A program made the translations under genes and the position numbers. Positions 1-61,464 of a stretch of 64,000 bases of DNA are shown here, piece by piece. Each line of letters opens with the position of its first letter. Within the stretch, counting starts at the first letter, position 1. Under the pieces are notes generated by a model. That model was not told where the DNA came from. It worked only from the letters and a program-made list of their open reading frames with translations, and did not search any database. Origin of the DNA: an uncultured Acidobacteriota bacterium (GTDB lineage Bacteria; Acidobacteriota; UBA6911; RPQK01; JAPXNP01); NCBI GenBank assembly GCA_963777605.1, contig CAVZRV010000035.1, positions 64,001-128,000 on the forward strand, read 5' to 3'.

Positions 1-254
1 ACCAGGTGTACTCCGGGAACTGGCTCTGGGCGATCTTAAACTTGAGCAGGCCGTCCTCCCAGATGTGCATCCCCTTCACCTCGATGGACTCCTGCCTTCC
101 GCCCGGGTAGAGCACCTTGAAGTCGAGTGTACCAGGTCCGGTCTGCGGCGCTCGTCAGCCGGAACTTCTGGGCCTCGAAGCGCCAGCTGGCGATCTCGCC
201 GGATTTGCGTTGCGCCTCCATCCGGTCGGCGAAGGCCCGCTCCGTCTTCGTCAT
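1..254 (-). pseudogene. DUF1064-like PD-(D/E)xK nuclease, frameshifted and running off the window start
   Basis: MTKTERAFADRME...WRFEAQKFRL...WYT continues in another frame (shift near 125) as DFKVLYPGGRQESIEVKGMHIWEDGLLKFK, giving a YT(P)DF...EVKG motif. Confidence 0.6.
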
Positions 255-706
255 CAGGGGAATGGTCGGTGTCGCGTTCGGCTCACTTCCCGGATCCAGG
301 CGTGGCCGATCATCACAATGCGGCTGCACAAATTGACTGGGTCGGCGGCAAGAAGCTGAAAGAACTTGCTTTGCTGCACTTTCAGTGCGATATTCCGGGA
401 AGTCTTATGCGGGCAGAAATCAAAAAGCCCGCATCTTCTCGGAATCAATCTGGTTCTGTTTGTGTCTTGGGAGACCTCACACGAAGGCAGGAATCAGCCT
501 GATCACGCTTGGCGTTCTGGGGTGGCTCCGCAGTTTACTCTCAAGATTCGGATGGCCATTTGCGGGAAATCGCCTGGAATCCGCAATGGCCGATTCCAGA
601 CTGACGCATAACAAGTCATTCCAGCGAAAGGTCAGGAGCTGCGCTTCTTGTCATCCGCTGAGTTCCAACCTTAGGCGCGCTCGAGGTGCATGGGAGAGAA
701 ACAGGT

Positions 707-841
707 ATGAAGAGGAACGGATTGCAGGAGAGTGGGTCTCCTTCTCAGTTTATCGACGCGAGAATCGAGGAGCTTGGCGACTGGCGGGGCAAAATGCTCA
801 GCCGGATCCGTACATTGATTAAAGAGGCATTGTCAACTTAA
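707..841 (+). pseudogene. Truncated DUF1801 (YdhG-like) protein N-terminus
   Basis: Hand translation MKRNGLQESGSPSQFIDARIEELGDWRGKMLSRIRTLIKEA, then an early stop at an IS6-like end sequence. Confidence 0.6.
826..840. mobile_element. Solo IS6-like terminal inverted repeat
   Basis: GGCATTGTCAACTT resembles the IS6 ends at 43523 (GGCACTGTCAAGT) and 58954 (GGCTTTGTCAAGTT); it lies exactly where the DUF1801 gene is truncated. Confidence 0.45.
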
Positions 842-1092
842 GGCGATAGCGGAAGGCAAGAGAAAGAAGACTCGAGGCGCGGAAAAGGACCCGACTCAGG
901 GAGGCTTTGCGAGATCCGTGCCTCGATCGCACCTTACGCGCTGAAACTCGAAACCTCGGAACCCCGAAAATCTCGCGGAATCCGAAACCCGCCACCGGGG
1001 AGTTCCCGGCCGGTCCGGAGAACCTTCCGGGTACTGGATGCGTTCTCCTGCTGTGGCCTCTGCGCCAGATTCAGAGTGCCCGAGGAGTTCAC

Positions 1093-2454
1093 ATGCACTG
1101 CGACCGACACACAATTCTGTTTCCAGCCTTCACGATGCTGCTGTCCTCCTTCCTGGGGGCGGCTCTGGCGATGGACGATTGCCCTGCCCGGAAAGTAGAT
1201 TCCTTGTTTCAGACGATCGGCACGGCAGCGCCGGGAGCTGCGGTTCTGGTCACCGAGAACGGCCGGGTGTTGTACGAGCACGGATACGGCCTGGCAGACG
1301 TCGAGAAAGGGGTGCCCATGACCCCGACCACCCGAGTCTGCATCGCATCGGTGACAAAGCAGTTCACCGCTGCCGCCGTCCTGATTTTGACCGAGCGAGG
1401 TCGGATCAATCTCGATCAGCCGGTTCAGGCTTATCTGCCCGACTTCTCACACGGCGATATCACGGTCCGGCAGCTGCTCACCCACACCTCCGGCCTGCCA
1501 GACTTTGTCAATTATGATCAGGCGAATGCGATGCCTCTCGACGCGAGCCCGGGGGATCGCCTGAACTACAGCAATACGGGGTACATGGTGCTGGGCAAAC
1601 TCATAGAGAAAGTCTCCGGTCTCTCCTATGCCGCGTTTCTGGATGAGAACATCTTCAAGCCCCTGATGCTGGAAAACACGGGTCTCGACTCGGCGGCGTC
1701 GGTCTCCTCGCGAGCCCAGGGCTACCTGAACGAGGGCAATGGTTTTCGGGCGACGCCTCCCCATTCCGTGGAAGACGCCTATGCCGCAGGCGGACTGTAT
1801 TCTACGGTCGAGGATCTCTATCTGTGGGACCAGTCCTGGTATGACAATCGCCTACTTCGTCCCGCCAGTATCGAGGCCGCATTGACTCCGGTACAGTTAA
1901 ACGATGGCCGAAAGGCTCCCTATGGATTCGGCTGGATGATCACCGAGTTTCGCGGCGCGCGTGAAATCTCCCACGGAGGCGACATCACCGGTTTCAACTC
2001 GTTCATCGCCCGCTATCCGGACCTGCACTTCAGTGTTGTGGTGTTGAGCAATATCGGGATGCGTCCGCCCGGGCCCCTGCCCAGCGCCGCCGACCTGGCC
2101 CACACGATTGCAGCCATTTACCTGGGTGAGAAGCTGGCTCCCGAACAGGTTCCAGTTCCCGCTGAGGTCGATGCGTCCGTTCTGCGCTCCTACGTGGGGC
2201 GCTATCGCCTTGACGCCCCGGCACAGATCACCAGCGAGTCCGGCGAAATCTTTACCATCACCCTCGAAGACGGCCACCTCCTGGGAGAAAGCAAGAATGG
2301 GAAAGGCGAGCTGTTTGCGGACTCGGAGACAATGTTTCATCCGGTTGGATTTCCGGTCAAGATTACGTTCCTCCGCAGCCCGGGTGGAACGGTCGATGAA
2401 CTACTCTTCAGCCTGATGGGACTGCGCGAATTCGCGGCCCACCGTGTAGACTGA
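1093..2454 (+). CDS. Secreted serine hydrolase, beta-lactamase/AmpC-like family, with DUF3471-like C-terminus
   Basis: SxxK (SVTK), YxN (YSN) and HGG motifs; signal peptide; GAGGAG RBS before ATG 1093. Confidence 0.88.
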   Translation: MHCDRHTILFPAFTMLLSSFLGAALAMDDCPARKVDSLFQTIGTAAPGAAVLVTENGRVLYEHGYGLADVEKGVPMTPTTRVCIASVTKQFTAAAVLILTERGRINLDQPVQAYLPDFSHGDITVRQLLTHTSGLPDFVNYDQANAMPLDASPGDRLNYSNTGYMVLGKLIEKVSGLSYAAFLDENIFKPLMLENTGLDSAASVSSRAQGYLNEGNGFRATPPHSVEDAYAAGGLYSTVEDLYLWDQSWYDNRLLRPASIEAALTPVQLNDGRKAPYGFGWMITEFRGAREISHGGDITGFNSFIARYPDLHFSVVVLSNIGMRPPGPLPSAADLAHTIAAIYLGEKLAPEQVPVPAEVDASVLRSYVGRYRLDAPAQITSESGEIFTITLEDGHLLGESKNGKGELFADSETMFHPVGFPVKITFLRSPGGTVDELLFSLMGLREFAAHRVD

Positions 2455-2526
2455 GGGGACCACAGCAACAGCCGAGGGGTTCTGGAAATCGGGCGGTTGA
2501 GTGCATTTCGCACTTTGCATTTCGGC

Positions 2527-2829
2527 TCACTCCTCGGCAATCTCTCTCTGGGGCGGGGCGTAGACCATCCTCCGTCCGCGGACATAGGATTCGTCGGCCA
2601 GAATGCCTGCAACCGCATGGGCGTGGCCAGCCTCCATGGGGGCGTTCGGCTCCTGGCGCGTCCTCAGACAGTCGAGCCAGTTCTTCATGTGGTGAACACT
2701 TTCAACCGTTGGCAGTCTCGAGCCGGATGTGATCCGGTCGAGCTCCCCCATCCCTTCGCAGCTGAGCGGCCATTCCCCGTTCGAGGACCAGTCGTTGCAA
2801 TCGATGGAACCCCGAGTCCCGTAGACCAT
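2527..2829 (-). pseudogene. C-terminal fragment of a Gfo/Idh/MocA oxidoreductase
   Basis: YGTRGSI...HMKNWLDCLRTRQEPNAPMEAGHAHAVAGILADESY is typical of the family C-terminus; no NAD-binding N-terminus. Confidence 0.65.
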
Positions 2830-2973
2830 GTTGAAATGGAATCCCCCATTGCATTGGCTCGAGCAGTAGGAAAGCTTCCATCAGGGACCGGGCGTCCATT
2901 TTTCAACTTGAGCATCAAGGTGCGACTTCAGGAACTTGGAATGAACCACGGTGACTAATAAAGAGAAGGTGAG

Positions 2974-4485
2974 GTGCCCGTGAAATCCGGAAGACTTCGT
3001 CCGTTGGGCCCGCTATCCATTGGTTTAGTCGCCATCATAGGACTGACCACAAGCAACAACATGCTGTCCAGTAGCGCAGGACTTTATGATCGCCTGCATC
3101 CCGTTCTGGAGCAGGCAGTCGCAGACCTCAAGGCGCCCGGGATGGTAGTCGCAGTCATTCGCGGCGGGAGGATAGACTACCTGGAGGCCTTTGGCGTTCG
3201 GGACCTCGAAGAACCGAATGCACTGGTGACGCCTGAGACACTCTTCCAAATGGCCTCGGTCACCAAGACCTTTTCGGCGACCGGCGTGCTGCAACTGGTT
3301 GAGCAGGGGAAACTGGATCTGGATGCCCCGGTGGCCCACTACCTGAACTATTTCCGGATGGCAGATCCCTGGTACGCCCAGATTACGGCGAGGCAATTGC
3401 TGAGCCACAGCTCCGGAATGCCGAATGTGGAGAATCCCGAATTCGAAAATGCCCAATTTGACAGCGGTGCCCTGGAACGGTTCGTCCGAAGCCTTGGAGC
3501 GCGGTCCCTTATCGCTTCTCCCGGAACCGAATTCCACTACAGCAATATCGGTTACGCTGTGCTTGGAGACCTCGTTGCCAAGATCAGCGGCGAAGTATTC
3601 GAAGAGTACGTTCAGAAGCACATTCTGCAACCACTCGCTATGAACCAGAGCACACTGCTGCTCGAGCGGGCTCGCAACAACGAACTGGCTGGCCCCCATA
3701 TTGTGAGTCTTGCCTACGAGATCACCTCAACTCGCTTGTTTCCGTATAACCGGGCGCTTTCTCCCGCTGCGACACTCTTCTCGAACGGCTCGGAAATGTG
3801 TCGTTGGGCATTAGCGAATCTCAATCGGGGTGCTTTGGACGGCGTGCGAATTCTGGCGGACTCCACCTACGAGCTCATGTGGCAGCCCACAGGTGAAGGG
3901 TTCTCGCATATGGGGTTGGGTTGGTTTCTTTGGACCTATCGAGGGCACAGAATGGTCGGGCATTCCGGCAGCGACCTGGGTTTCGTAACCGACCTGCAAT
4001 TGATGCCAGAACAGGGAATTGCCGTCGTCGTGATGATGAACCGCGACCGCGGATCGATTCGTCCCGTCGTAAGTGCCGCACTGGACGCCGCTCTGGGACT
4101 ATCCCCAGAACCCATTGTGGTCAAACCTTGGCTGGCCAAGCAAATCTATAGGATGATCAACAGCGAGGGTGTGGCATCGGCGATAAAAAGGTATCGGGAG
4201 CTCAAGAAGCAACCGTCCGAACAGCTCGACTTGAATGAATGGGTCCTGAACGACGTCGGCTACCACCTTTTGCGGCAGGGAAGAACGGATGAAGCAGTCC
4301 ATGTCTTCGAGGTCAACGTGGAAGACTACCCGGCATCATCCAATGCGCATGACAGTCTTGCCGACGGATACTGGAATTTGGGGGACCGCGATCAGGCGGT
4401 GTATCACTATCGAAAGTCGCTCGAATTGAATCCGAACAACCGGAAGGCAGAAGAGCGCATCAAGGCGAAATCAGAGATGCCCTGA
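2974..4485 (+). CDS. Serine hydrolase (beta-lactamase family) with C-terminal TPR
   Basis: SVTK, YSN and HSG motifs; C-terminal LNDVGYHLL...NAHDSLADGY...SLELNPNN TPR. Confidence 0.88.
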   Translation: MPVKSGRLRPLGPLSIGLVAIIGLTTSNNMLSSSAGLYDRLHPVLEQAVADLKAPGMVVAVIRGGRIDYLEAFGVRDLEEPNALVTPETLFQMASVTKTFSATGVLQLVEQGKLDLDAPVAHYLNYFRMADPWYAQITARQLLSHSSGMPNVENPEFENAQFDSGALERFVRSLGARSLIASPGTEFHYSNIGYAVLGDLVAKISGEVFEEYVQKHILQPLAMNQSTLLLERARNNELAGPHIVSLAYEITSTRLFPYNRALSPAATLFSNGSEMCRWALANLNRGALDGVRILADSTYELMWQPTGEGFSHMGLGWFLWTYRGHRMVGHSGSDLGFVTDLQLMPEQGIAVVVMMNRDRGSIRPVVSAALDAALGLSPEPIVVKPWLAKQIYRMINSEGVASAIKRYRELKKQPSEQLDLNEWVLNDVGYHLLRQGRTDEAVHVFEVNVEDYPASSNAHDSLADGYWNLGDRDQAVYHYRKSLELNPNNRKAEERIKAKSEMP

Positions 4486-4534
4486 CTGCGGCGACTGTAC
4501 CCGCATTTGGGTTCGAAGTCGGACTGCACGAACC

Positions 4535-6181
4535 ATGGTTCAAAGACTGACATTATCACTGGTAACGGTGCTGACCCTGGCAGTGGCTATCGCCCCGCTC
4601 AGAAGCCGGAGACTCGAAGGGGCGGAGTGCCAGCCGACCCTGATCATCTGGAATGCCCGGGTGTGGACCGGCAATCCGAATCAACCGCGAGCGGAGGCAG
4701 TTGCATTTGTAGGTCATCGCATCCTCCTCGTTGGTACGAACGAGGAGGTGCTGTCTTCTCGCCAGCCTTCGACAAAGCTGGTTGATGCTGGAGGAAATTC
4801 GGTATTACCCGGGTTCATCGATGCCCATTTTCATCTTCTTGATCTCAAGCCGCCCAAGGAATCGATCAATCTGCGCTGGGCGTCAAGCAAGCGGGAGTTC
4901 ATCGAAACTGTCGCCGGATATACCCGATCGGTTCCGGAGGGAGAATGGATCCTGGGAGAGGGCTGGGACGAACGGAAGTGGGGCGGTGAGCTGCCCGAAA
5001 GGGGATGGATCGACTCCGTTACCGGACACAATCCGGTCTGGCTCGTAAGGAACCACGGAGGAGCCGGACTGGCCAATTCGCAGGCTCTGAAGGCAGCCGG
5101 AATAACTGTGAGTTCGAGCCGAAACCTTCAGGGAGTTGCCCTCGATCCGAATGGAATACCCACCGGGCTGATTCGCGGAGGGCCTATGTGGCTCATCGAC
5201 GCCGCCCAGGTTGAAAGACACTTGGGGACTGCAGGTGATGAGGCCGAAGCCCTCATGCACCGTCTCGCTGCCCTTGGGGTCACCTCGGTACACCACACCG
5301 GGAACTGGCAGGAACTACTCGTCTTCCAGATGCTGGATCGAGAGCACAGGCTTCCCATTCGGATCTACGCCGGGGTCCCGTTTCTGGGCTGGGAGAGGCT
5401 GCGCGACTATATTGCTGCTAACGGCAGGGGGGATCGCCTTCTCCATTGGGGCGGTCTGAAGCTTTTCAGGGATATCCCCTGGATCGAGGGAGATACGTCA
5501 ATTCCGACAAGGCTGGACCGCTGGGCAATTCTCCCGACTGAGGGCGAGGTAAGAGAATGGATTCTGGAGGCATCGAAGGCGCGACTGCAGATCATGGTCC
5601 ACGCCGGCGGGCTGCGCTTTCTGAAGCTCTTCAATCAGGTCCACGAGGCTCTGGGTTCTCCGGATCTCAGATTCCGGATCGAACACGCCCACGACATTCC
5701 ATCCGACTGGATTCCTTTATACGCGCGCGCCGGCGTGATCGCGAGTATCCAACCTCCTCTTCTGGCACACTTCGACATTAGAACGAAGCTGGGGCAGGCC
5801 AAGCCGATAAACCTCTTTCCGTGTCGAGCGTTGCTCGAGTCGGGAGTCACCATTGCATTTGGCACCGATGCAATCACGGCCAGTTCCCTGCTCTCGCCCT
5901 TTGAGGTGATAAGGATGGCTGTCGAACGCCCCGGTCCTGATGGACGGAGGTTAAGTCTTGAGCAGTGTCTGCAGGCTTATACCATCTCCGCGGCATATGC
6001 GGAGTTCGAAGAGAAGGAGAAAGGCACCATCGAACCGGGCAAATGGGCAGACACCATCCTGCTCGACCGTGACCTGTTCGCACAGCCAATCTCAGACCTC
6101 GGAGAGATTCGGGTCGTTCTCACTGTCATGGACGGAGAGATCGTCCATGGAGGTGCTTTGTATTCTGCGGGGGCCAACTAA
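4535..6181 (+). CDS. Amidohydrolase family 3 (YtcJ-like) metal-dependent hydrolase
   Basis: PGFIDAHFH, RIEHA, FGTD and KGTIEPGKWAD motifs; signal peptide. Confidence 0.88.
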   Translation: MVQRLTLSLVTVLTLAVAIAPLRSRRLEGAECQPTLIIWNARVWTGNPNQPRAEAVAFVGHRILLVGTNEEVLSSRQPSTKLVDAGGNSVLPGFIDAHFHLLDLKPPKESINLRWASSKREFIETVAGYTRSVPEGEWILGEGWDERKWGGELPERGWIDSVTGHNPVWLVRNHGGAGLANSQALKAAGITVSSSRNLQGVALDPNGIPTGLIRGGPMWLIDAAQVERHLGTAGDEAEALMHRLAALGVTSVHHTGNWQELLVFQMLDREHRLPIRIYAGVPFLGWERLRDYIAANGRGDRLLHWGGLKLFRDIPWIEGDTSIPTRLDRWAILPTEGEVREWILEASKARLQIMVHAGGLRFLKLFNQVHEALGSPDLRFRIEHAHDIPSDWIPLYARAGVIASIQPPLLAHFDIRTKLGQAKPINLFPCRALLESGVTIAFGTDAITASSLLSPFEVIRMAVERPGPDGRRLSLEQCLQAYTISAAYAEFEEKEKGTIEPGKWADTILLDRDLFAQPISDLGEIRVVLTVMDGEIVHGGALYSAGAN

Positions 6182-6230
6182 TCTCATATCACTCGTGACA
6201 TAACCATCACTGGAATCTGATAGGCCCATT

Positions 6231-6491
6231 TCAGGGATCACTGCGGCTTGCAACTGATTGGAATTTGAACAACTCGGCGACGTCGACTCCAAAAGCATTC
6301 GACAGTCGATTCAAGGTCTTAAGCGACAAGTTCCGCTGGCCATATTCAATGCGCTGGTAGTACTTGTATTCGAACCCAGACCGGCACATATCCTTCTGCC
6401 GAGGTCCTCCCTGGAGGGGGAACTGGCGAACTCCGCTATCCACTCCTCCTTTGGGCTTGTAATTTCCTGTGCACTTTCTGCCAGAATTCAT
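6231..6491 (-). pseudogene. XRE-family HTH regulator with a disrupted N-terminus
   Basis: QKDM...FEYKYYQRIEYGQRNLSLKTLNRLSNAFGVDVAELF is an HTH_3 pattern; the plausible first helix (FWQKVHRKLQAQRR) lies in another frame. Confidence 0.65.
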
Positions 6492-55256: not shown

Positions 55257-55508
55257 GTGAGTGAAACAGAGAGAATTCGTGAAATCAAGGCGAGAGCCGA
55301 ATCCGACTTGCTCAAGATCCCGGGTGTGACCGGAATTGATATCGGTTACAAAAAGGTCGGAGGCCGGAAGACGGCGATTCTCGCGATCCGAGTCTATGTC
55401 GAGAAAAAGGGAGATGTCGCCGAGAACCAGTCTATACCTTCAGAAATTGAAGGCGTCCCGACCGATGTGATCGAGCGGAAGTTTGTCCTGCACGCCGATC
55501 AGCAGTGA
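55257..55508 (+). CDS. Stand-alone copy of the N-terminal domain of the downstream protease
   Basis: [32 protein letters not shown]...IP....[14 protein letters not shown] aligns with the first ~80 aa of 55598-57004. Confidence 0.82.
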   Translation: MSETERIREIKARAESDLLKIPGVTGIDIGYKKVGGRKTAILAIRVYVEKKGDVAENQSIPSEIEGVPTDVIERKFVLHADQQ

Positions 55509-55597
55509 CCGGTACCAGCGCTGCGCCTGGGCCGTTGGAGGGTGGGGCCGAAGCGTCGCTAAATCCGCGCGGAAGAGGACCAGAGAGGAGTCCATTA

Positions 55598-57004
55598 ATG
55601 AAGACACTGAGCGAGATTCGAAGGGTGAAGAAGTCCCTTGAGGAAGAGATCATGGGCCGCCCAGGAGTCACTGGGTGCGATGTCGGACCGAAGATCGTCA
55701 AGGGGAAGAAGACAGGCGACTTGTCCATTCGAGTTTACGTGGAGAAGAAGGAAGATGTGCCGAAGAAGGACCAGATACCGAAAGCTTTCCTGGGGGTGAA
55801 AAGCGACGTCATCGAACGGAAATTTGTGCTGCACCAGATGAAGGCGAAGCTCGAGGATTTGAAGCCGAGAGCCGACACCGGGACCTATGATCCCCTTGTC
55901 GGCGGCATCAGCCTTGGTCCCTGCCGGGTGATCGGGGGGTACGTCTACACCGGGACTTTGGGCGCTATCGTCCGGGACAATGCTTCCAATGCCCCGATGC
56001 TATTGAGCAACTTTCACGTCATGTGTGTGGACGATGCCTGGGGTGTGGGCGATACCATGGCCCAGCCGAGCCGAGTGGATACAGGGTCCTGTCCCGCTGA
56101 CGTTGTGGGCACACTTCAGCGTTCATCGCTCGGGGGTCAGGTCGACTGCGCTGTGGCAGATATCACCGCACGAAGCAATGCCTGTGAGATCGTGGATATC
56201 GGCGCCGTCAATGGCACCGGGACGGCCACTGTTGAGATGGCCGTCAGGAAGAGAGGGCGTACGACAGGCCTTACTTATGGAATCGTCGACACGGTCGACC
56301 TGACCGTCAGCATCGACTACGGGGACGGGCTCGGTTCGGTCACCTTGACCGATCAGATCGGCATCGACGTTGATCCCGCCCAGAGCGTGCAGTTCGGCAA
56401 CTCGGGCGATTCGGGTTCTGTCGTCGTCGATGACGACCGCAATATTGTTGGGCTCTACTTCGCCGGAACCGACGACGGATCGTACGGCGTCGCCAACCCG
56501 ATTCAGTCGGTCCTGGCTGCGCTGAATATCAGCGTGTGCGTTCCCAAGATCAAGGAGATCAAGGAGTTCAAGGAACCCAAAGAATTCAAGGAGTTCAAAG
56601 AGCTCAAGGAATTCAAGGAGCCGAAGGAGTTCAAGGAGTTCAAGGAGTTCCGAAAGGAATTCAAGGAGCCCAAGGAGTTCAAGGAGTCGAAGGAGAGATT
56701 CAAGGAGTTCAAGGAGAAGGATAAGGATATCTACGAAGATTTCCCAGGCGGTCCCTTCGATCCGGGTCCGTTCGATCCCGGGCCTTGGGGCCAGCGATCC
56801 CTGGAAGAGCGCTTGGCTCGTCTCGAGACGGTTGCCAACCAGTTGGTGCACTTCATCAATCCGGAGATGCGTCCCGAGCTTGCGCGCTCAGCGTTGGCCC
56901 AAGAACCAGATTTGAGGAAAACTCAGGAAAAGCTCCAGAAAGAGGCCTCGGACGCTAAACAGGCCAAGGACAGTAAGGACGTTGAAAAGCCTCGCGAGCA
57001 GTAA
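55598..57004 (+). CDS. Trypsin-like (Nal1-type) serine protease with a C-terminal xKE repeat tail and coiled coil
   Basis: GTLG, LSNFHV (His), VDCAVA (Asp), GDSGS (Ser), VGLYFAG; GAGGAG RBS; no signal peptide. Confidence 0.87.
56549..56716 (+). repeat. Coding tandem repeat, 18 x (F/I/P/L/S/R)KE
   Basis: 9-bp unit TTCAAGGAG with synonymous AAG/AAA and GAG/GAA variation. Confidence 0.95.
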
Positions 57005-57049
57005 GGAATTGGCGTGGGACGGTGACCGAGCCTCTCGTCCGGGTCTCGC

Positions 57050-57790
57050 ATGTGGATAGTTTTGGGGAGTTTCAACGACGTCGGAGCGCTCTGGGCCTAC
57101 GAGGGACTGAAGGCGAGGGGACTTGAGCCGCTTGAGTTTGTCTCAAGTGAGTCCCTCGCCTACAGTCTCTTCTGGGAACATCGTGTCGGGCGAAGTGGCT
57201 CGACCTACACGGCATTTCGGCTGGCTGATGGCCGTTGCTTCACGAGCAAGGAAATCCGGGGGGTATTGAACCGCCTGGTCCATCTGCCGACGGACCATTT
57301 CGCCGTCGCGCAGCCTGGAGAGCGGGCCTACGCCGGCCAGGAATTGACGGCGTTCGTTCTGAGTTGGCTGACTTCCCTGGGGCCAAATGTGCTCAACCTG
57401 CCCTCACCCCAAGGGCTGTTTGGCCGCTGGCGAAGGCCGCTGGAATGGCTGCAACTGGCGTCACGGGCGGGTCTTTCAACCCGAGATTACCCGGATATCG
57501 CCTCTGAAATTTCCGGTGAGGAACCGGACCGTTTCTTGCGAGGCAGCCGATCAAACCGGATGGCCTTGGTGTTGGATGACACCGTCTACGGACCTGATCT
57601 TCCCGCCAGGGTGCGGTCTGGAGCAATCCGACTGGGCCGGCTTTCCGAAACGAGACTCCTGGGCGTTTCCTTCCATCCGGGATCGGAAAAGGATTGGGTT
57701 TTCGAAAGCGCGACACCTCTTCCTGACCTGCGGCCGGGCGGAAACATCTTTCTCGATGGACTCATGGAGGCTCTGACTCAAGAACGATGA
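57050..57790 (+). CDS. Degenerate or shortened ATP-grasp-like protein
   Basis: IRGVLNRL, VLNLPS, LQLASRAGL and LLGVSF...WVFESATPLPDL parallel the downstream ligase, but the lid lysine region and ExN are missing. Confidence 0.65.
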   Translation: MWIVLGSFNDVGALWAYEGLKARGLEPLEFVSSESLAYSLFWEHRVGRSGSTYTAFRLADGRCFTSKEIRGVLNRLVHLPTDHFAVAQPGERAYAGQELTAFVLSWLTSLGPNVLNLPSPQGLFGRWRRPLEWLQLASRAGLSTRDYPDIASEISGEEPDRFLRGSRSNRMALVLDDTVYGPDLPARVRSGAIRLGRLSETRLLGVSFHPGSEKDWVFESATPLPDLRPGGNIFLDGLMEALTQER

Positions 57791-58713
57791 TTCTCTTGTG
57801 CGGCATTCCCACTGAAGGTCCCCTTGCGCTGCTTCGGGCGGAGGTGGAGAAGCTCGGCTATCCCTACGTCCTGTTCAATCAGCGGCACTTTGCCGACTCC
57901 GGGATCGACCTTCGCCTCTCATCCGGGAAGGTCGCTGGGACCATTTCTACGGCGGGACGAACCTATCGGCTCGAGGATATCTCAGGAATCTTTGTGCGCC
58001 TGATGGACGAAAGGGAGTTACCTGAGATCCTGGAGGAACCAGAGGACTCTCCACTGAAACGGCACTGCCGTAAGCTTCACGAGTCGCTTGTCGAGTGGTG
58101 TGAAATCAGTCCCGGTCGGGTCGTAAATCGAGTGGCTCCGATGGGCTCCAACTTCTCGAAGCCGTACCAGGCACAGCTGATTTGTCGGCAGGGATTCTTG
58201 ACTCCAGAGACGCTCATCACAAATGACCCGCTCCTCGCGCGAGAGTTCTACCAGACCCGAAGGAAAGTCATCTACAAATCGATCAGTGGGGTCCGCTCGA
58301 TCGTTCAGCTGATGAAACCGGAGGATCTGGATCGGCTGGATTCTTTACGCTGGTGCCCGACCCAGTTCCAGGAATTCGTCGAGGGCGAGAACGTGAGGGT
58401 CCACACGATTGGGCAGACGAACGTCTTTGCCACCCGGATTGTTGCAGAAGCGACCGACTACCGCTACAGTCGCGCGGGCCAGGACCGGGATACGGAACTC
58501 CAACCGTGGTCCATTCCCGACGAACTTGCCGAGCGTTGTTTGAGACTCGCCCAGTCGCTGGGATTGGCCTTTGCCGGAATCGACTTGAAAATCACTCGCG
58601 AAGACGAGGTCTTTTGTTTCGAGGTTAATCCCTGCCCCGCATTCAGCTACTACGAATCCTACACGGGCCAGCCGATTGCCCGGGCCCTGGCGGAATACCT
58701 GGTCGGGCAGTAA
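57787..58713 (+). CDS. RimK/MvdD-like ATP-grasp ligase
   Basis: SNFSKPYQ, PETLITND, VIYKSISG, QFQEFVEG, VRVHTIG, FAGIDL and FEVNPCP; ATGA overlap with the upstream gene. Confidence 0.9.
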   Translation: MILLCGIPTEGPLALLRAEVEKLGYPYVLFNQRHFADSGIDLRLSSGKVAGTISTAGRTYRLEDISGIFVRLMDERELPEILEEPEDSPLKRHCRKLHESLVEWCEISPGRVVNRVAPMGSNFSKPYQAQLICRQGFLTPETLITNDPLLAREFYQTRRKVIYKSISGVRSIVQLMKPEDLDRLDSLRWCPTQFQEFVEGENVRVHTIGQTNVFATRIVAEATDYRYSRAGQDRDTELQPWSIPDELAERCLRLAQSLGLAFAGIDLKITREDEVFCFEVNPCPAFSYYESYTGQPIARALAEYLVGQ

Positions 58714-58953: not shown

Positions 58954-59470
58954 GGCTTTGTCAAGTTGAGCCAAGGTCAGCGTGATCAGCCAGAATTGTT
59001 GAATGAGCACCAGCTATAAAGGCGTGTGTTTCCCTCCCGAGATCATCAGTCATGCGGTCTGGCTCTACCATCGTTTCGCCCTCAGCTTTCGGGATGTCGA
59101 GGATCTGCTGGCTGAGCGTGGAATCATTGTTTCGCACGAAGCCATCCGTTTCTGGTGTCTGAAGTTCGGACCGGAATACGCTCGAAGGCTCCGAAAGAAA
59201 CAAGGTCGATTGGGGGGACATCTGGCATGTCGATGAAGTCTTCGTCAAAGTCCAGGGACAGCAGAGGTATCTGTGGCGCGCCGTCGATCAAGACGGCGAT
59301 GTTCTCGACATTTTGGTGACGAAGAGACAAAATAAACAAGCTGCCACGCGGTTCTTTCGCAAGCTGTTGAAGGGACAGGGTTCGTCGCCCTGGAAACTGG
59401 TCACCGATAAACTCCGGAGCTATTCTGCCGCTCATGGCGATGTCTTTCCCTCGATCGAGCATCGAACAGG
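58954..59470 (+). mobile_element. IS6-family element, frameshifted and 3'-truncated
   Basis: Left IR GGCTTTGTCAAGTT; FPPEIISHAVWLYHRFALSFRDVEDLLAERG / WHVDEVFVK...YLWRAVDQDG...TDKLRSY. Confidence 0.88.
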
Positions 59471-59474
59471 TTAG

Positions 59475-61464
59475 CCCAAGTTCGACAGTTGAGCCTGTCC
59501 GGGAGGGATTTTTCGGCTTATTCTGCTGATAACTTCTCTGTTTTCAATGGCCATTTTCCGGCGAGTGCGTGTAGTGGAGACAACCCCGTTGCGGACGGGG
59601 GGTTGAGGGCCCGATACTGGGGTCATGTTCCTTCGACCCAATCGCCGGCGTCGCAAAGGGGAAACCTACGAGTACTGGACGCTGGTGGAATCGGTGCGCA
59701 CGGCGCGGGGGCCGCGGCAGCGGATCGTGGCAACGCTGGGAAAGCTGCCCGGGTTGGACGAGGAAGAGCGGGCCGGCTGGGAGGAGATTGCGCGGTTGCT
59801 GGACGGGGAACCACGCTCGGCGGCCCAGCGAAAGCTGTTTGAGGCCGATCCGGAAGACCCGCCGCAGTGGGCTCAGGTCAACCTGCGTGGAGTCCGGGTG
59901 GAACGGGTCCGCGAGTTCGGCAAGGTGTGGTTGGGGTTGGCGTTGTGGCGCCGGTTGGGGCTGCACCAGTTCTTTGCCGACCACAGCCACCAGGGACGTG
60001 AGCAGGTGGACTGGGCGACGGTGGCCTGCATTCTGACGCTGGGACGATTCTGTGCCCAGGCCTCGGAGTTGGCCTTGGGCGAGCGGTGGTATGCGACGAC
60101 GGCGTTGGAGGATCTGGTCGGGGTGTCGGCCGACGCGGTGTACGACAACCGCCTCTATCGGGGCCTGGATCAGATGCTGCCGCTGCGCGACACCCTGTTC
60201 AGCCACCTGCGGGAACGCTACCGGAGCCTGTACGGAAGCCGCTTCGAGTTTCTGCTCTACGATGTCACCAGTACCTATTTCGAAGGCCAGTGCGGGAGCA
60301 ATCCGCTGGCCCAGCGGGGCTACAGCCGGGACAGTCGTCCGGACTGCAAACAGGTCTGCATTGGACTGGTGGTGACTCCGGAAGGGTTGCCCCTGGCCTA
60401 CGAGGTGTTTGCGGGAAACCGTGCGGACGTGACCACGGTCGAGGACATTGTGGAGTTGATGGAACGCAAGTACGGGCGCGCGCAACGGATCTGGGCGATG
60501 GACCGGGGCATGGTCAGTGAAGACAATCTGGACCATCTGCGTCGGCGCAACGCCTGGTACATCGTGGGGACACCGAAAGCGAAACTGAAACAGTTCGGCC
60601 GGGAACTCGAGGAGAAGACCGAGTGGCAGGAGGTCCAGCCCGGGCTGGAGGTGAAGCTGATCGAGCATCCGGACGGGCGGGGCCAGGAGCGGTTCGTGCT
60701 GTGCCGCAGCCAGGCCCGGCAAGCCAAAGAAGCGGCCATGCTGGAGCGGCAGCGGGAGCGGTTGCGGGCACACCTGGCGGCGATTGACGCGTCGCTGAGA
60801 AAGCGGCCGCAGGATCCGGAGTCGGTGGGCCGGCGGATCGGCCGATGGCTGGGGCGCCACACGGCGGCGGAGAAACTGTTTCGGGTGGAGGTGATCGTCG
60901 AAAAGAGTCGTGCCGTCCGTTTGCAGATCGAGGAGGACGAAGGTCGACGGGACTGGGCGCAGGCCGCCCAGGGAGCCTATCTGTTGCGAACCAACTGCAC
61001 GGAGACGGATCCGGTCCAGCTCTGGAAGTGGTACATGCATCTGACCGAGGTCGAGGATGCCTTCCGGATCAGCAAGTCGGATCTGGGATTGAGACCGGTG
61101 TTTCATCAGCGGCAGGACCGGGTCGAGGCCCATTTGCTGATCTGCTTTCTGGCGTTGGCTCTGTGGCGAAGCCTCGAACAGTGGTTGAGCGCCAAAGGGT
61201 TGGGAGACTGTGCACGGCGAGTGCTGGAACAGATGTCGACGATCCGATCAATGGACGTGGTGCTGCCCATCAAAGACCGGGCAGAAGTCCGCCTGCGACT
61301 GGTGGGCAAACCCGAACAGCCCACGGCGGAGTTGATGACCCGCATGCGCCTGGGCCTGCCCACCCGACCGAAAGTGATTCAAAATGTAGTGGAGAAAACG
61401 TAAGACCGCGGACTGCATCTAAACGACTTACCGCGATTTATACCCCTTAACTGTCGAACTTGGG
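59475..61464 (+). mobile_element. IS1634-family insertion sequence
   Basis: Terminal IRs CCCAAGTTCGACAGTT / AACTGTCGAACTTGGG around a single transposase. Confidence 0.9.
59625..61403 (+). CDS. IS1634-family DDE transposase
   Basis: YDVTSTYFEG, GYSRDSRPDCKQV, MDRGMVS and VEDAFRISKSDLGLRPVFH. Confidence 0.93.
   Translation: MFLRPNRRRRKGETYEYWTLVESVRTARGPRQRIVATLGKLPGLDEEERAGWEEIARLLDGEPRSAAQRKLFEADPEDPPQWAQVNLRGVRVERVREFGKVWLGLALWRRLGLHQFFADHSHQGREQVDWATVACILTLGRFCAQASELALGERWYATTALEDLVGVSADAVYDNRLYRGLDQMLPLRDTLFSHLRERYRSLYGSRFEFLLYDVTSTYFEGQCGSNPLAQRGYSRDSRPDCKQVCIGLVVTPEGLPLAYEVFAGNRADVTTVEDIVELMERKYGRAQRIWAMDRGMVSEDNLDHLRRRNAWYIVGTPKAKLKQFGRELEEKTEWQEVQPGLEVKLIEHPDGRGQERFVLCRSQARQAKEAAMLERQRERLRAHLAAIDASLRKRPQDPESVGRRIGRWLGRHTAAEKLFRVEVIVEKSRAVRLQIEEDEGRRDWAQAAQGAYLLRTNCTETDPVQLWKWYMHLTEVEDAFRISKSDLGLRPVFHQRQDRVEAHLLICFLALALWRSLEQWLSAKGLGDCARRVLEQMSTIRSMDVVLPIKDRAEVRLRLVGKPEQPTAELMTRMRLGLPTRPKVIQNVVEKT

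Follow-up and report, generated by a model that had tools for sequence, protein, structure and literature searches.

Described ATP-grasp systems and their precursors

Graspetide synthetases of solved structure (PsnB, 7drm; MdnC, 5ig9; CdnC, 7mgv; AMdnB, 7m4s; PruB, 9bou) act on substrates in which a short conserved recognition motif lies beside a region rich in nucleophiles and acids. As a class, graspetides are made from a small precursor with an N-terminal leader, and the product is usually released or exported. RimK, the ribosomal protein S6 glutamate ligase, is also an ATP-grasp enzyme and adds Glu residues to a C-terminus. In the corallotide pathway, a TIGR04187-type ligase installs five KxxxD lactams in CorA, a precursor of 22 kDa, and the first graspetide synthetase needing a partner protein is described in the same work (Carter et al. 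2026, PMC13097080). For the myxomiditides, reports cover the processive formation of (KxxE)n lactams by MyxF, as well as an ATP-grasp complex, MyxD1-MyxD2, of which one partner alone cannot engage the precursor (PMC12848669). It has also been reported that a graspetide leader moved to the C-terminal side of the core is still functional (PMC13003496).

ATP-grasp loci without a predicted precursor have also been described. Those of "branch 8" combine a truncated inactive ATP-grasp protein with peptidases of unrelated families; no precursor could be predicted, and it was suggested that precursors are encoded elsewhere or that peptides are cut from other proteins (Makarova et al. 2022, Biol Direct 17:7, PMC8939145). 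The locus presented here lies in the window, the whole stretch of 64,000 nucleotides that was analysed from contig CAVZRV010000035.1 of an uncultured Acidobacteriota bacterium, and was considered together with 56 related loci. These loci fit branch 8 (and 7) as described there: a truncated inactive ATP-grasp protein (psi) is present in 54 of the 56, and the peptidases beside it are of unrelated families (Nal1-like, S8, astacin and, by eye, papain-like). They differ in that a precursor can be proposed, namely the peptidase's own C-terminal tail, where the published account of branch 8 predicts none. The original prediction that this is not a described system is therefore half right, since loci pairing a truncated ATP-grasp protein with unrelated peptidases are in print, with no precursor predicted for them (PMC8939145). 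The tail appears to be the precursor missing from branch 8 loci.

Gene content of the locus and homology of its products

Four co-oriented, closely packed open reading frames are present at 55257-58713 on the + strand, in agreement with the arrangement first described (ORF listing; coordinates verified by translation). They encode a free NAL1_N-like module (55257..55508; 83 aa from GTG 55257, the longest frame opening at TTG 55167), a NAL1-like chymotrypsin-fold serine protease with a C-terminal tail (55598..57004; 468 aa), psi, a degenerate ATP-grasp paralogue and putative scaffold or recognition subunit (57050..57790; 246 aa), and lig, an intact graspetide-synthetase-like ATP-grasp ligase (57787..58713; 308 aa). 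The last two share an ATGA overlap, as expected from their proposed translational coupling. Conservation across the 56 related loci and the window is limited to lig, psi and the gene with the tail. Neither a small precursor ORF nor a transporter is conserved among them, and the absence of both had been correctly noted from the window.

The protease frame is open from GTG 55505 (499 aa), but the true start is almost certainly ATG 55598, because GAGGAG sits 8 nt before it, the database gene call (P0121) gives 468 aa and the homologues in the family alignment open with MKxLxEIR. The triad predicted to be intact (H140, D183 and S272; 56015..56413, with His at 56015-56017, Asp at 56144-56146 and Ser at 56411-56413, all on the + strand) occurs in the contexts SNFHVMC, GQVDCAV and SGDSGSV and is invariant in 57/57 aligned family members. 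The family is large, with 1337 homologues at E<=0.001, and its profile matches rice NARROW LEAF 1 (NAL1, 7y77) at E 1.3e-8 across the N-terminal module and His region; a further stretch of the match spans GDSG. Both the window protein and its homologues give Pfam Nal1_C and NAL1_N matches, which for the window protein itself score under the gathering threshold. Chymotrypsin-order triad and NAL1 homology together place the enzyme among NAL1-like serine proteases; the likeness concerns the fused enzyme only and is one of sequence, and the window protease differs from rice NAL1 in being bacterial and in bearing a K/E tail.

The small first gene had been labelled a pro-domain, a label that has to be replaced. 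Its product gives a weak Pfam NAL1_N match (E 0.005) and shares 53% identity with the protease N-terminus of L002, a near-identical locus; judged by this identity, it is a paralogue of that N-terminus. Free copies upstream of the protease are also found in L003, L070 and L072. The NAL1 region matched by the family profile is an ATP-binding, trimer-forming domain, and NAL1-family proteases assemble into trimers and hexameric cages, according to PMC12012508. The free module is probably an oligomerisation module.

The psi protein has no match in Pfam or NCBIfam. Its kinship is seen by hhalign against the ligase family (probability 97.6%, E 3.2e-12) and in an AF2 model (pLDDT 91.8) whose best Foldseek matches are PruB, AMdnB, MdnC and PsnB (E about 1e-10). 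All this bears out its reading as a degenerate ATP-grasp protein: psi is a paralogue of the ligase without the central ATP-binding (nucleotide) subdomain.

At the ligase level, homology to the solved graspetide synthetases is full-length. The lig profile matches PsnB at 2e-41, CdnC at 1.3e-34, MdnC at 1.2e-32 and RimK at 1e-9, and lig itself matches the Pfam RimK domain at 6e-9. Among curated families, TIGR04187 (SAV_5884) scores 128.8 bits (2.5e-37; cut-off 350), TIGR04184 (MvdD) 94.3 bits (cut-off 475), TIGR04185 (MvdC) 86.2 bits (cut-off 425) and the RimK family TIGR00768 45.4 bits (cut-off 143.4). Since lig falls under every curated NCBIfam cut-off, the type of reaction is not transferable by family membership. 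Eleven positions (K164, R170, Q193, Q195, R204, H206, D224, R226, D266, E279 and N281) are invariant in 28/28 ligases, including D266, E279 and N281, which we take to be Mg-binding, and the FQE segment aligned with PsnB and MdnC is retained. In a tree, the 19 ligases linked to HFI-type tails, that of the window included, form one clade (SH-aLRT 95) that adjoins a clade with TIGR04187, MvdC and MvdD members and is far from RimK; the tree was rooted on very long outgroup branches that include RimK, which leaves its deep branching order uncertain. The expected proximity to graspetide synthetases rather than to RimK, for which the placement among MvdC, MvdD and RimK had been proposed as a check, is thus seen in profiles, NCBIfam scores and tree alike. 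By its homology, lig is an intact member of the graspetide-synthetase lineage. The putative precursor departs from that class, as the motif is C-terminal to the tract, the carriers are large and neither a protease nor a transporter is conserved.

Co-occurrence of the tail with the ligase pair

The forward sample comprised 56 ligase loci on contigs from one genome per species, and the motif was scored as [HAS]F[IV]..RP.[LVI] on the same strand within 1.8 kb upstream of psi. The psi gene lies directly upstream of lig in 54/56. A conserved motif with a K/E(D) tract, putatively in recognition and core roles, accompanies the ligase: the motif is found upstream of psi in 44/56, and 40 of these 44 have at least 50% K/E/D over 20 aa ahead of it, while in the remaining four (L032, L036, L049 and L051) such a tract is scarcely present or absent. 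Where ligase identity is 46% or more, the motif is there throughout (24 loci); this count includes L018, whose contig breaks off and leaves no more than a tblastn tail match. It is missing in nine psi-lig loci with enough upstream sequence, mostly from Streptomyces and other actinobacteria at 38-44% ligase identity. In the reverse sample, 13 metagenome loci recovered by HFIxPELRP alone, psi is next in 12 and lig is there too in 11; the contig of L072 ends inside psi, and L081 has neither gene. The original prediction turned on whether ligase homologues are linked to KE-repeat tails in other genomes, and linkage was found in both directions (44/56; 12/13). A wider expression, allowing G too in the first place, matches 35 times in the six frames of the 6.7-Mb genome of origin, and only the window copy lies in a K/E context. 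When 401 genomes were sampled from the phylum, two had a match to the tail profile, and these two were also the ones with a close ligase; as they are near-identical kin, this co-occurrence is weak support.

The tail is joined to a variety of N-terminal partners: Nal1-like, Peptidase_S8, Astacin, TIG, B_lectin, Tyrosinase, Big_2, papain-like (by eye) or none. It is also found on Ig-repeat proteins and on domain-less K/E-rich proteins, and five loci with a stand-alone tail have no nearby protease. From these neighbourhoods, the constant partner of psi-lig is the tail and not the protease. It had been suggested that the fused protease releases the product; as a general logic this was rejected, because the system does not always include the protease. 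The proposal derived from Makarova et al. 2022 that neighbouring peptidases cut other cellular proteins into peptides for the ATP-grasp enzyme, the tail being unrelated to the ligase, fits the observation that the most frequent neighbours are peptidases, from unrelated families, and that its authors found no precursor in the loci they describe (PMC8939145). We regard it as very improbable, as non-peptidases (tyrosinase, Ig/TIG repeats, lectin) and domain-less proteins bear this tail too, some loci lack any peptidase, and it is the motif that tracks psi-lig both ways, its type following the ligase clade in the tree.

The tail of the protease is very probably the substrate of psi-lig. For the two ATP-grasp branches left without a precursor in the account of Makarova et al. 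2022, the comparison points to a concrete substrate next door, the C-terminal tail of the neighbouring gene's product, marked by a recognisable motif. The psi-lig pair recurs in many bacterial and archaeal lineages, and such a substrate would supply the missing precursor of orphan peptide-crosslinking enzymes in both. A further family, group 32 of Carter et al. 2026, noted there for "diverse families of neighboring proteases" (PMC13097080), may overlap with the present ligases.

The tail and its putative modification

In the window protease, the tail opens with a K/E tract of period 3 (xKE), the putative core and modified region (56546..56728, + strand). Its 61 aa hold 21 K, 18 E, 2 D and 2 R, and the 18 KE dipeptides counted match the (xKE)18 first read from the sequence. 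The tract is followed by 51 residues and then by the K/D-rich end; these comprise a Pro/Gly-rich linker of 24 residues (56729..56800) and a stretch of 27 residues with a helix and an HFIxPxxRPEL motif, the putative recognition (follower) sequence (56801..56881). The optional K/D-rich C-terminal end of 17 residues occupies 56951..57001, all on the same strand. Among 24 aligned tails, linker columns are variable and the motif is the best-conserved portion, with R, H, F, I, R and P invariant in 24/24, which fits the recognition or follower role that had been assigned to it.

Composition offers indirect evidence on the chemistry. The long frames of the genome of origin hold 3.0% K, 6.2% E and 8.4% R, so that a K/E tract by chance is excluded. 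On average, 89 tracts contain 27.2% K, 22.0% E, 8.4% D, 2.4% R, 1.2% S and 2.0% T. With K so far above R in tracts (27.2% vs 2.4%) and below it in the genome (3.0% vs 8.4%), it is lysine, and not positive charge, that the sequences indicate to be selected; Ser/Thr nucleophiles are nearly absent. The pattern K[DE]h.[DE] is present in 105/198 tails, against 27.4 (sd 4.8) when shuffled. No universal K-to-acid spacing was found across tracts, the median share of K with an E/D partner being 0.50 at +1, 0.33 at +4, 0.49 at +5 and 0.47 at -2. Tract length ranges over 25-240 aa and the register varies too. At the DNA level the window tract is a 9-bp tandem repeat (17.9 copies, score 161); a slippage-prone repeat of this kind, with varying length and register, is also expected of a charged spacer.

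A reading in which the tail is the substrate but the tract only a charged spacer, for instance a single alpha-helix, would place the modified residues in or after the motif, at the K/D-rich end or at the E/D beside R-P. Such a spacer could well evolve as a tandem repeat of changing length and register, and four of the 44 motif-bearing loci do almost without it; moreover, about 15/24 close tails share a well-conserved end segment, AKQAKDxKDxEK, K[DN].KD.[ED] follows the motif in 79/229 and the B-type motif retains an acid before R-P in most loci. However, the K/D-rich end is missing from 150/229 tails (about two thirds) and, without exception, from B-type tails, where 3-47 residues (mostly 3-21) follow the motif, and a spacer needs no 11:1 excess of K over R in genomes where R exceeds K. 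In Aquimarina, the whole tract-plus-cap unit is repeated three to four times ahead of a single motif, and these units look like multiple cores. We therefore judge the spacer reading unlikely.

Serial Lys-Glu/Asp lactam formation guided by the C-terminal motif is the best reading of these sequences. It would involve three parts: lig as the catalytic graspetide-type enzyme, psi as a dead ATP-grasp protein, most likely in a heteromer with lig and helping to hold the substrate, and, as substrate in place of a small peptide, the C-terminal tail borne by the product of the gene immediately upstream. This tail is a portable module made of a Lys/Glu(Asp) tract of variable length, a Pro/Gly linker, an amphipathic helix ending in HFIxPxxRPDL and an optional K/D-rich end. 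The helix and motif would dock onto psi-lig as a natural follower sequence; lig would then use ATP to phosphorylate Glu/Asp side chains of the tract, and neighbouring Lys amines would attack them to form a series of side-chain isopeptide (macrolactam) rings, each with a loss of 18 Da. The window copy of the module is attached to a cytoplasmic serine protease of NAL1-like type that probably forms cages; the outcome would be a decorated or rigidified enzyme tail instead of a free peptide. Follower-directed lactam modification by psi-lig, taken as the whole explanation, is an account in which we place slightly more belief than doubt.

Parts of this scheme have published precedents. Corallotide and rosaritide biosynthesis (CorA/CorB; partner MirC) shares a large precursor, repeated Lys-to-Asp i,i+4 lactams, a TIGR04187-type ligase and a partner protein; CorA differs by its N-terminal leader, KxxxD units, 2OG oxygenase and restriction to Corallococcus, and MirC belongs to the PPIase-associated rosaritide cluster and is not called an ATP-grasp paralogue in the passages that concern it (PMC13097080). 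The myxomiditide pathway likewise offers serial directional lactams on tandem Lys/Glu units and an ATP-grasp enzyme active only with a second one that engages the precursor, but on small microviridin-type peptides with an N-terminal leader, full-length partners and i,i+3 spacing in the systems reported (PMC12848669). With respect to the solved graspetide synthetases, lig differs in having a domain-deleted paralogue as obligate neighbour, a putative recognition motif C-terminal to the putative core, Lys as almost the sole putative nucleophile, tails of proteins up to about 1,600 aa as putative substrate and loci without a conserved protease or exporter. RimK acts on the C-terminal tail of a full-size protein, as is proposed for lig; it differs in adding Glu to the C-terminus, in its much weaker similarity (1e-9; 45 bits vs a cut-off of 143) and in its position as a long-branch outgroup.

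Another possibility is that psi-lig makes Lys-Glu isopeptide bonds between molecules, joining tails of neighbouring subunits or other proteins into polymers or covalent cages, or that it extends Glu side chains or termini like RimK/TTL-type enzymes. Trimers and hexameric cages of the kind described for the NAL1 family would gather several tails (PMC12012508), and an engineered graspetide synthetase is reported to yield cross-linked protein dimers (PMC13003496). The weak matches of lig to the RimK Pfam domain and TIGR00768 point the same way, as does the near absence of signal peptides (1/100 tailed proteins; 0/114 protease homologues), from which it follows that the product stays where ATP is. 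We nevertheless hold this to be quite improbable, given that lig is far nearer to intramolecular macrocyclases (2e-41) than to RimK (1e-9), in agreement with the tree, that tail C-termini are not conserved across the family and that no oligomeric domain is known in many of the tailed proteins.

A broader idea, which we offer tentatively and with more reserve than conviction, embraces both outcomes: a natural "graspetide tag" for whole proteins, in which a ligase/pseudo-ligase heteromer would read an HFIxPxxRPDL-type C-terminal motif and close the period-3 Lys/Glu tract before it into successive isopeptide rings, or else cross-link one tail to another. Subtilisins, astacins, tyrosinases, Ig-repeat proteins and cage proteases of the cytoplasm would thereby acquire covalently rigid or polymerised tails, in bacteria and archaea alike. 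Such a tag would be a class of protein-level modification rather than a peptide natural product, and would explain why two orphan ATP-grasp branches stand constantly beside unrelated peptidases. Were the lactam reading true, lig would be the first natural graspetide-type enzyme steered by a C-terminal recognition sequence, and the first with a dedicated pseudo-enzyme subunit and with full-size enzymes as normal substrates. Protein engineering would also gain a handle, a short motif by which a ligase is brought to any fused protein to staple a Lys/Glu tract there.

With a profile of the motif region, 505 cluster representatives are matched at E<=0.001; in the 150 matches listed the motif is at the C-terminal end, with carriers of 57-872 aa, and other tailed proteins reach 1,590 aa. 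The close-relative form HFIxPxxRPDL, at the end of the amphipathic helix, is replaced in the distant half of the family by G[RQH]AFIxPxERPxVG.

Organisation of the cassette

The four tightly packed ORFs of the original prediction are all present in the window in the same orientation. The first of them (55257-55508, + strand) encodes a free NAL1_N-like module of 83 aa that is paralogous to the N-terminal ~80 residues of the protease encoded by the second gene, with 53% identity in the near-identical locus L002, and is a stand-alone version of that N-terminal module. The reading frame of the protease gene is open from a GTG at 55505, and its true start is almost certainly the ATG at 55598, as supported by a GAGGAG 8 nt before it, by a database gene call of 468 aa and by homologues that begin with MKxLxEIR. 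The protease core has a His/Asp/Ser triad ordered as in chymotrypsin, each residue being invariant in 57/57 aligned relatives, and the family profile matches rice NARROW LEAF 1 (NAL1; 7y77, E 1.3e-8). The stretch initially named a pro-domain corresponds, with a weak match, to the Pfam NAL1_N region, whose counterpart in NAL1 has been described as a domain that binds ATP and provides the trimer interface within a hexameric cage (PMC12012508). On this basis the stretch is probably an oligomerisation module, and the pro-domain label is abandoned. None of the four cassette proteins was matched by PADLOC.

The other two genes encode the predicted pair of an intact ATP-grasp ligase (57787-58713) and a pseudo-ligase (57050-57790), a description that proved correct, with the stop of the latter overlapping the start of the former in the sequence ATGA. 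The ligase matches the RimK-type ATP-grasp Pfam domain; in NCBIfam it comes closest to the graspetide maturases TIGR04187, MvdD and MvdC, every score lying below the cut-off. When a family profile of 28 members was compared with solved structures, PsnB ranked first (2e-41), followed by CdnC and MdnC, while RimK reached just 1e-9. No variation is seen across 28/28 sequences at eleven conserved charged or polar residues, among them D/E/N positions in the C-terminal domain and an FQE segment alignable with PsnB and MdnC. The pseudo-ligase has no family match in Pfam or NCBIfam; profile-to-profile alignment with the ligase nevertheless spans its N- and C-terminal parts (probability 97.6%, E 3.2e-12) and shows that the central nucleotide-binding subdomain is deleted. 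Its AlphaFold2 model (pLDDT 91.8) finds PruB, AMdnB, MdnC and PsnB as best fold matches (E about 1e-10, TM 0.65-0.73). A predicted complex of ligase, pseudo-ligase and tail, with a score of 0.28 and a mark of 0.32, is counted neither for nor against.

Translation and repeat analysis bear out the description of the protease tail as a K/E tract followed by a conserved C-terminal region. The 61-aa tract contains 21 K, 18 E, 2 D and 2 R, with 18 KE dipeptides, corresponds to a 9-bp DNA repeat in 17.9 copies, and is followed by a Pro/Gly linker, the conserved segment ([27 protein letters not shown]) and a K/D-rich end.

Linkage of the tail to the ligase pair

The ligase family holds 4449 proteins at E<=0.001, the best 119 non-self matches being 57-64% identical. 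A scan of one genome per species yielded 56 ligase loci, distributed among Acidobacteriota, Chloroflexota, Actinomycetota, Proteobacteria, Nitrospirota, Myxococcota, Bacteroidota, Cyanobacteria and Margulisiibacteriota and including four archaeal records. The pseudo-ligase lies immediately 5' of the ligase in 54/56. Conservation across loci is limited to the ligase, the pseudo-ligase and the gene preceding them, the next-ranking cluster consisting of shadow ORFs antisense to the ligase. No common transporter or tailoring enzyme was found among the genes conserved across loci, in line with the absence of a transporter already noted for the window.

In 44 of the 56 loci the gene preceding the pair ends in [HAS]F[IV]x(3-6)RPx[LVI], and a K/E/D-rich tract precedes this motif in 40 of these 44. 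Among the 12 loci lacking the motif, two have less than 260 bases of upstream sequence and one has the pseudo-ligase inverted; the other nine are mostly from Streptomyces and other actinobacteria, with ligase identities of 38-44%. Two flavours of the motif can be distinguished. The first, HFIxPxxRPDLxxGALxxEPD, is preceded by an ERLxxLE helix and is present wherever ligase identity is at least 46%, as well as in locus L022. The second, G[RQH]AFIxPxERPxVG, lies close to the extreme C-terminus and belongs to distant loci, including those of archaea and cyanobacteria. In the Streptomyces loci L050 (ORF 50-6196) and L052 (ORF 29-6196), the pair is preceded by a ~2,050-aa protein with a hydrophobic Gly/Ala-rich end that carries neither K/E tract nor motif, and this sub-branch may use a different substrate.

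Placement of the ligase in a tree, already proposed with the original prediction, was carried out by quick maximum likelihood with most of the 56 loci left out, together with L056 (frameshifted ligase) and L092 (same gene as L043). The 19 HFI-linked ligases form a single clade (SH-aLRT 95), separate from an adjoining clade that contains bona fide TIGR04187 members, one MvdD and one MvdC. These are the two features for which the tree is relied upon; AFI-linked ligases appear as a basal grade, with a root that is unsure because it is set by two very long RimK-type outgroup branches.

The linkage was also followed from tail to ligase, by searching metagenome contigs with the pattern HFIxPELRP alone. 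Among 13 confirmed loci the pseudo-ligase lies directly 3' in 12, accompanied by the ligase in 11; one of the remaining contigs ends within the pseudo-ligase and one locus has neither gene. The predicted association of ligase and K/E tail is thus observed in both directions. This two-way synteny, the C-terminal position of the tail and the co-variation of motif type with ligase clade indicate that the tail is very probably the cognate substrate of the pair; the helix and motif of the tail would act as the recognition element.

A word-based search with the 75-aa tail region retrieved just 2 proteins and was too insensitive, so it was replaced by a full profile scan. The helix-motif profile retrieved 505 cluster representatives (E<=0.001) among 1.84 billion proteins, with the match at or near the C-terminus in the 150 matches listed. 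A genome-wide sorting tag, with many tailed proteins per genome, was rejected since the window's own genome holds a single tailed ORF. Across 401 sampled genomes of the phylum, tail and close ligase occur in the same two genomes, which are close kin. Directly 3' of the cassette lie IS remnants with a DDE_Tnp_IS240 fragment (59003-59474) and a 592-aa DDE_Tnp_1 transposase (59625-61403), in a stretch with a G+C of 0.64-0.65 versus about 0.57. The mobile elements, the raised G+C and the patchy distribution suggest that the cassette arrived horizontally.

Carriers, composition and possible chemistry of the tail

The N-terminal partner of the tail is interchangeable. Carriers include NAL1-like proteases, subtilases (Pfam S8), astacins and papain-like proteases (these last identified solely by eye), a lectin-like domain, a tyrosinase (E 1e-40), repeat proteins of the Big_2 and TIG types reaching about 1,600 aa, and domain-less proteins of 150-470 aa that are nearly entirely K/E-rich. 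The protease-tail fusion is common and not a one-off, since 71 of the 120 best relatives of the window protease carry the motif by a strict pattern and another 16 of 19 inspected among them carry a variant. The proposal that the fused protease releases the product, as a leader peptidase would, fails as a general logic because the tail also ends non-proteases and five stand-alone-tail loci have no protease nearby. In a crude hydrophobicity scan, signal-peptide-like N-termini were detected in 1/100 tailed proteins and 0/114 protease relatives; it is therefore likely that tailed proteins encounter the ATP-dependent ligase in the cytoplasm, where they may also stay.

In composition, 89 tracts average K 27%, E 22%, D 8%, R 2.4% and S+T about 3%, in comparison with K 3.0% and R 8.4% in the window's own genome, and a K-acid-hydrophobic-x-acid arrangement is ~4x enriched over shuffles. 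That the tracts are rich in K, E and D and poor in S/T, and in R even though R outnumbers K in the genomes concerned, that this arrangement is enriched, that relatives of the ligase make side-chain esters and amides, and that some tails repeat the tract unit before one motif are all reasons to see in the tract a putative modified core joined by Lys-Glu/Asp lactams. Even so, the tract would also pass for a charged spacer, given that its length and register are highly variable, that a universal Lys-to-acid spacing was looked for in the tracts and not found, and that it is nearly absent in 4/44 motif-bearing loci. We consider the chances of the lactam core to be about even. If lactams are formed, they might make tails rigid or resistant to proteases, join cage proteases into covalent assemblies, or serve in regulation.

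Several variants of the tail were observed. In Aquimarina (L025 3936-6119; L031 3209-5038) a whole unit, a K/E tract ending in KEKDKDIIENP plus a Pro/Gly spacer, is repeated 3-4x before a single helix-HFI motif, and these tails look like multi-core precursors. Some NAL1-like proteases (P0133, P0175, P0229) replace the period-3 xKE tract with KK.EPEP(I/P) units of 7-8 residues and keep the same end motif. Several long tailed proteins (L003 4071-6122, L004 2199-4442, L007 3071-5827, also P0252 and P0303) have a ~110-aa Cys-containing domain (C.DF ... LLL.LCC), with no Pfam match, between two K/E tracts, the helix after the first tract lacking the HFI motif. At L049 (around 6140-6271) a 42-aa ORF directly 5' of the pseudo-ligase combines a Lys-rich start with the motif SFIRPEERPDL and may be a minimal precursor. 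A strict KD[KR][DE]h cap, found in just 19/229 tails, was discarded as a defining element.

Relation to described ATP-grasp families

Published precedents make each element of the mechanism plausible by analogy. Lys-Asp lactams of i,i+4 spacing have been reported in a 22-kDa precursor, as have synthetases that depend on a partner (PMC13097080). Processive lactam formation on (KxxE)n is also on record, together with an ATP-grasp that requires a second ATP-grasp to engage its precursor (PMC12848669), and so is a leader that remains functional when placed as a follower, with a short recognition tetrapeptide that contains R-P (PMC13003496). That tetrapeptide, RPFG, is reported to be what ThfB chiefly recognises in graspimiditide leaders (PMC13003496), and ThfB is related to the best NCBIfam match of the ligase. 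The R-P that is invariant in the tail motif (56864-56869) recalls RPFG, a resemblance to be taken as a lead and not as evidence.

The architecture had been considered undescribed. A literature search at the level of main texts and result listings returned no paper naming the tail or motif; the locus type itself, compared by description only, fits branch 8 of Makarova et al. 2022, whose loci typically encode a truncated, inactive ATP-grasp (PMC8939145). According to the same source, loci of branches 7 and 8 hold peptidases of several unrelated families, their precursors were not predictable, and the peptidases were proposed to supply peptides from other proteins. The tail offers an alternative, in which it would be the substrate and the peptidases would occur in these loci as its carriers. 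In Carter et al. 2026, the new group 32 is characterised by "diverse families of neighboring proteases", and long repetitive precursors mark groups 34 and 35 (PMC13097080). The family may be branch 8 or group 32, or its precursor may already be called in the supplementary tables of either study. From comparative analysis, the cassette is rated as a putative system of graspetide type in which the ligase has a pseudo-enzyme partner, recognition relies on a natural follower and the substrates are of protein size.

A second type of tail was observed in 8 of the 120 best NAL1-like protease relatives (P0144, P0155, P0158, P0165, P0174, P0196, P0225, P0235), which end in PF.L[AS]TPH[HR] and then a coiled-coil-like stretch, in place of the K/E tail. 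In the Streptomyces locus L048 (around 4416-5603 and 3496-4086, both - strand) this motif ends an astacin-like ORF just 5' of a second, different ATP-grasp gene, whose product clusters with TIGR04187-like enzymes in the tree. It may represent a parallel system with a tail on a peptidase, perhaps Makarova's branch 7.
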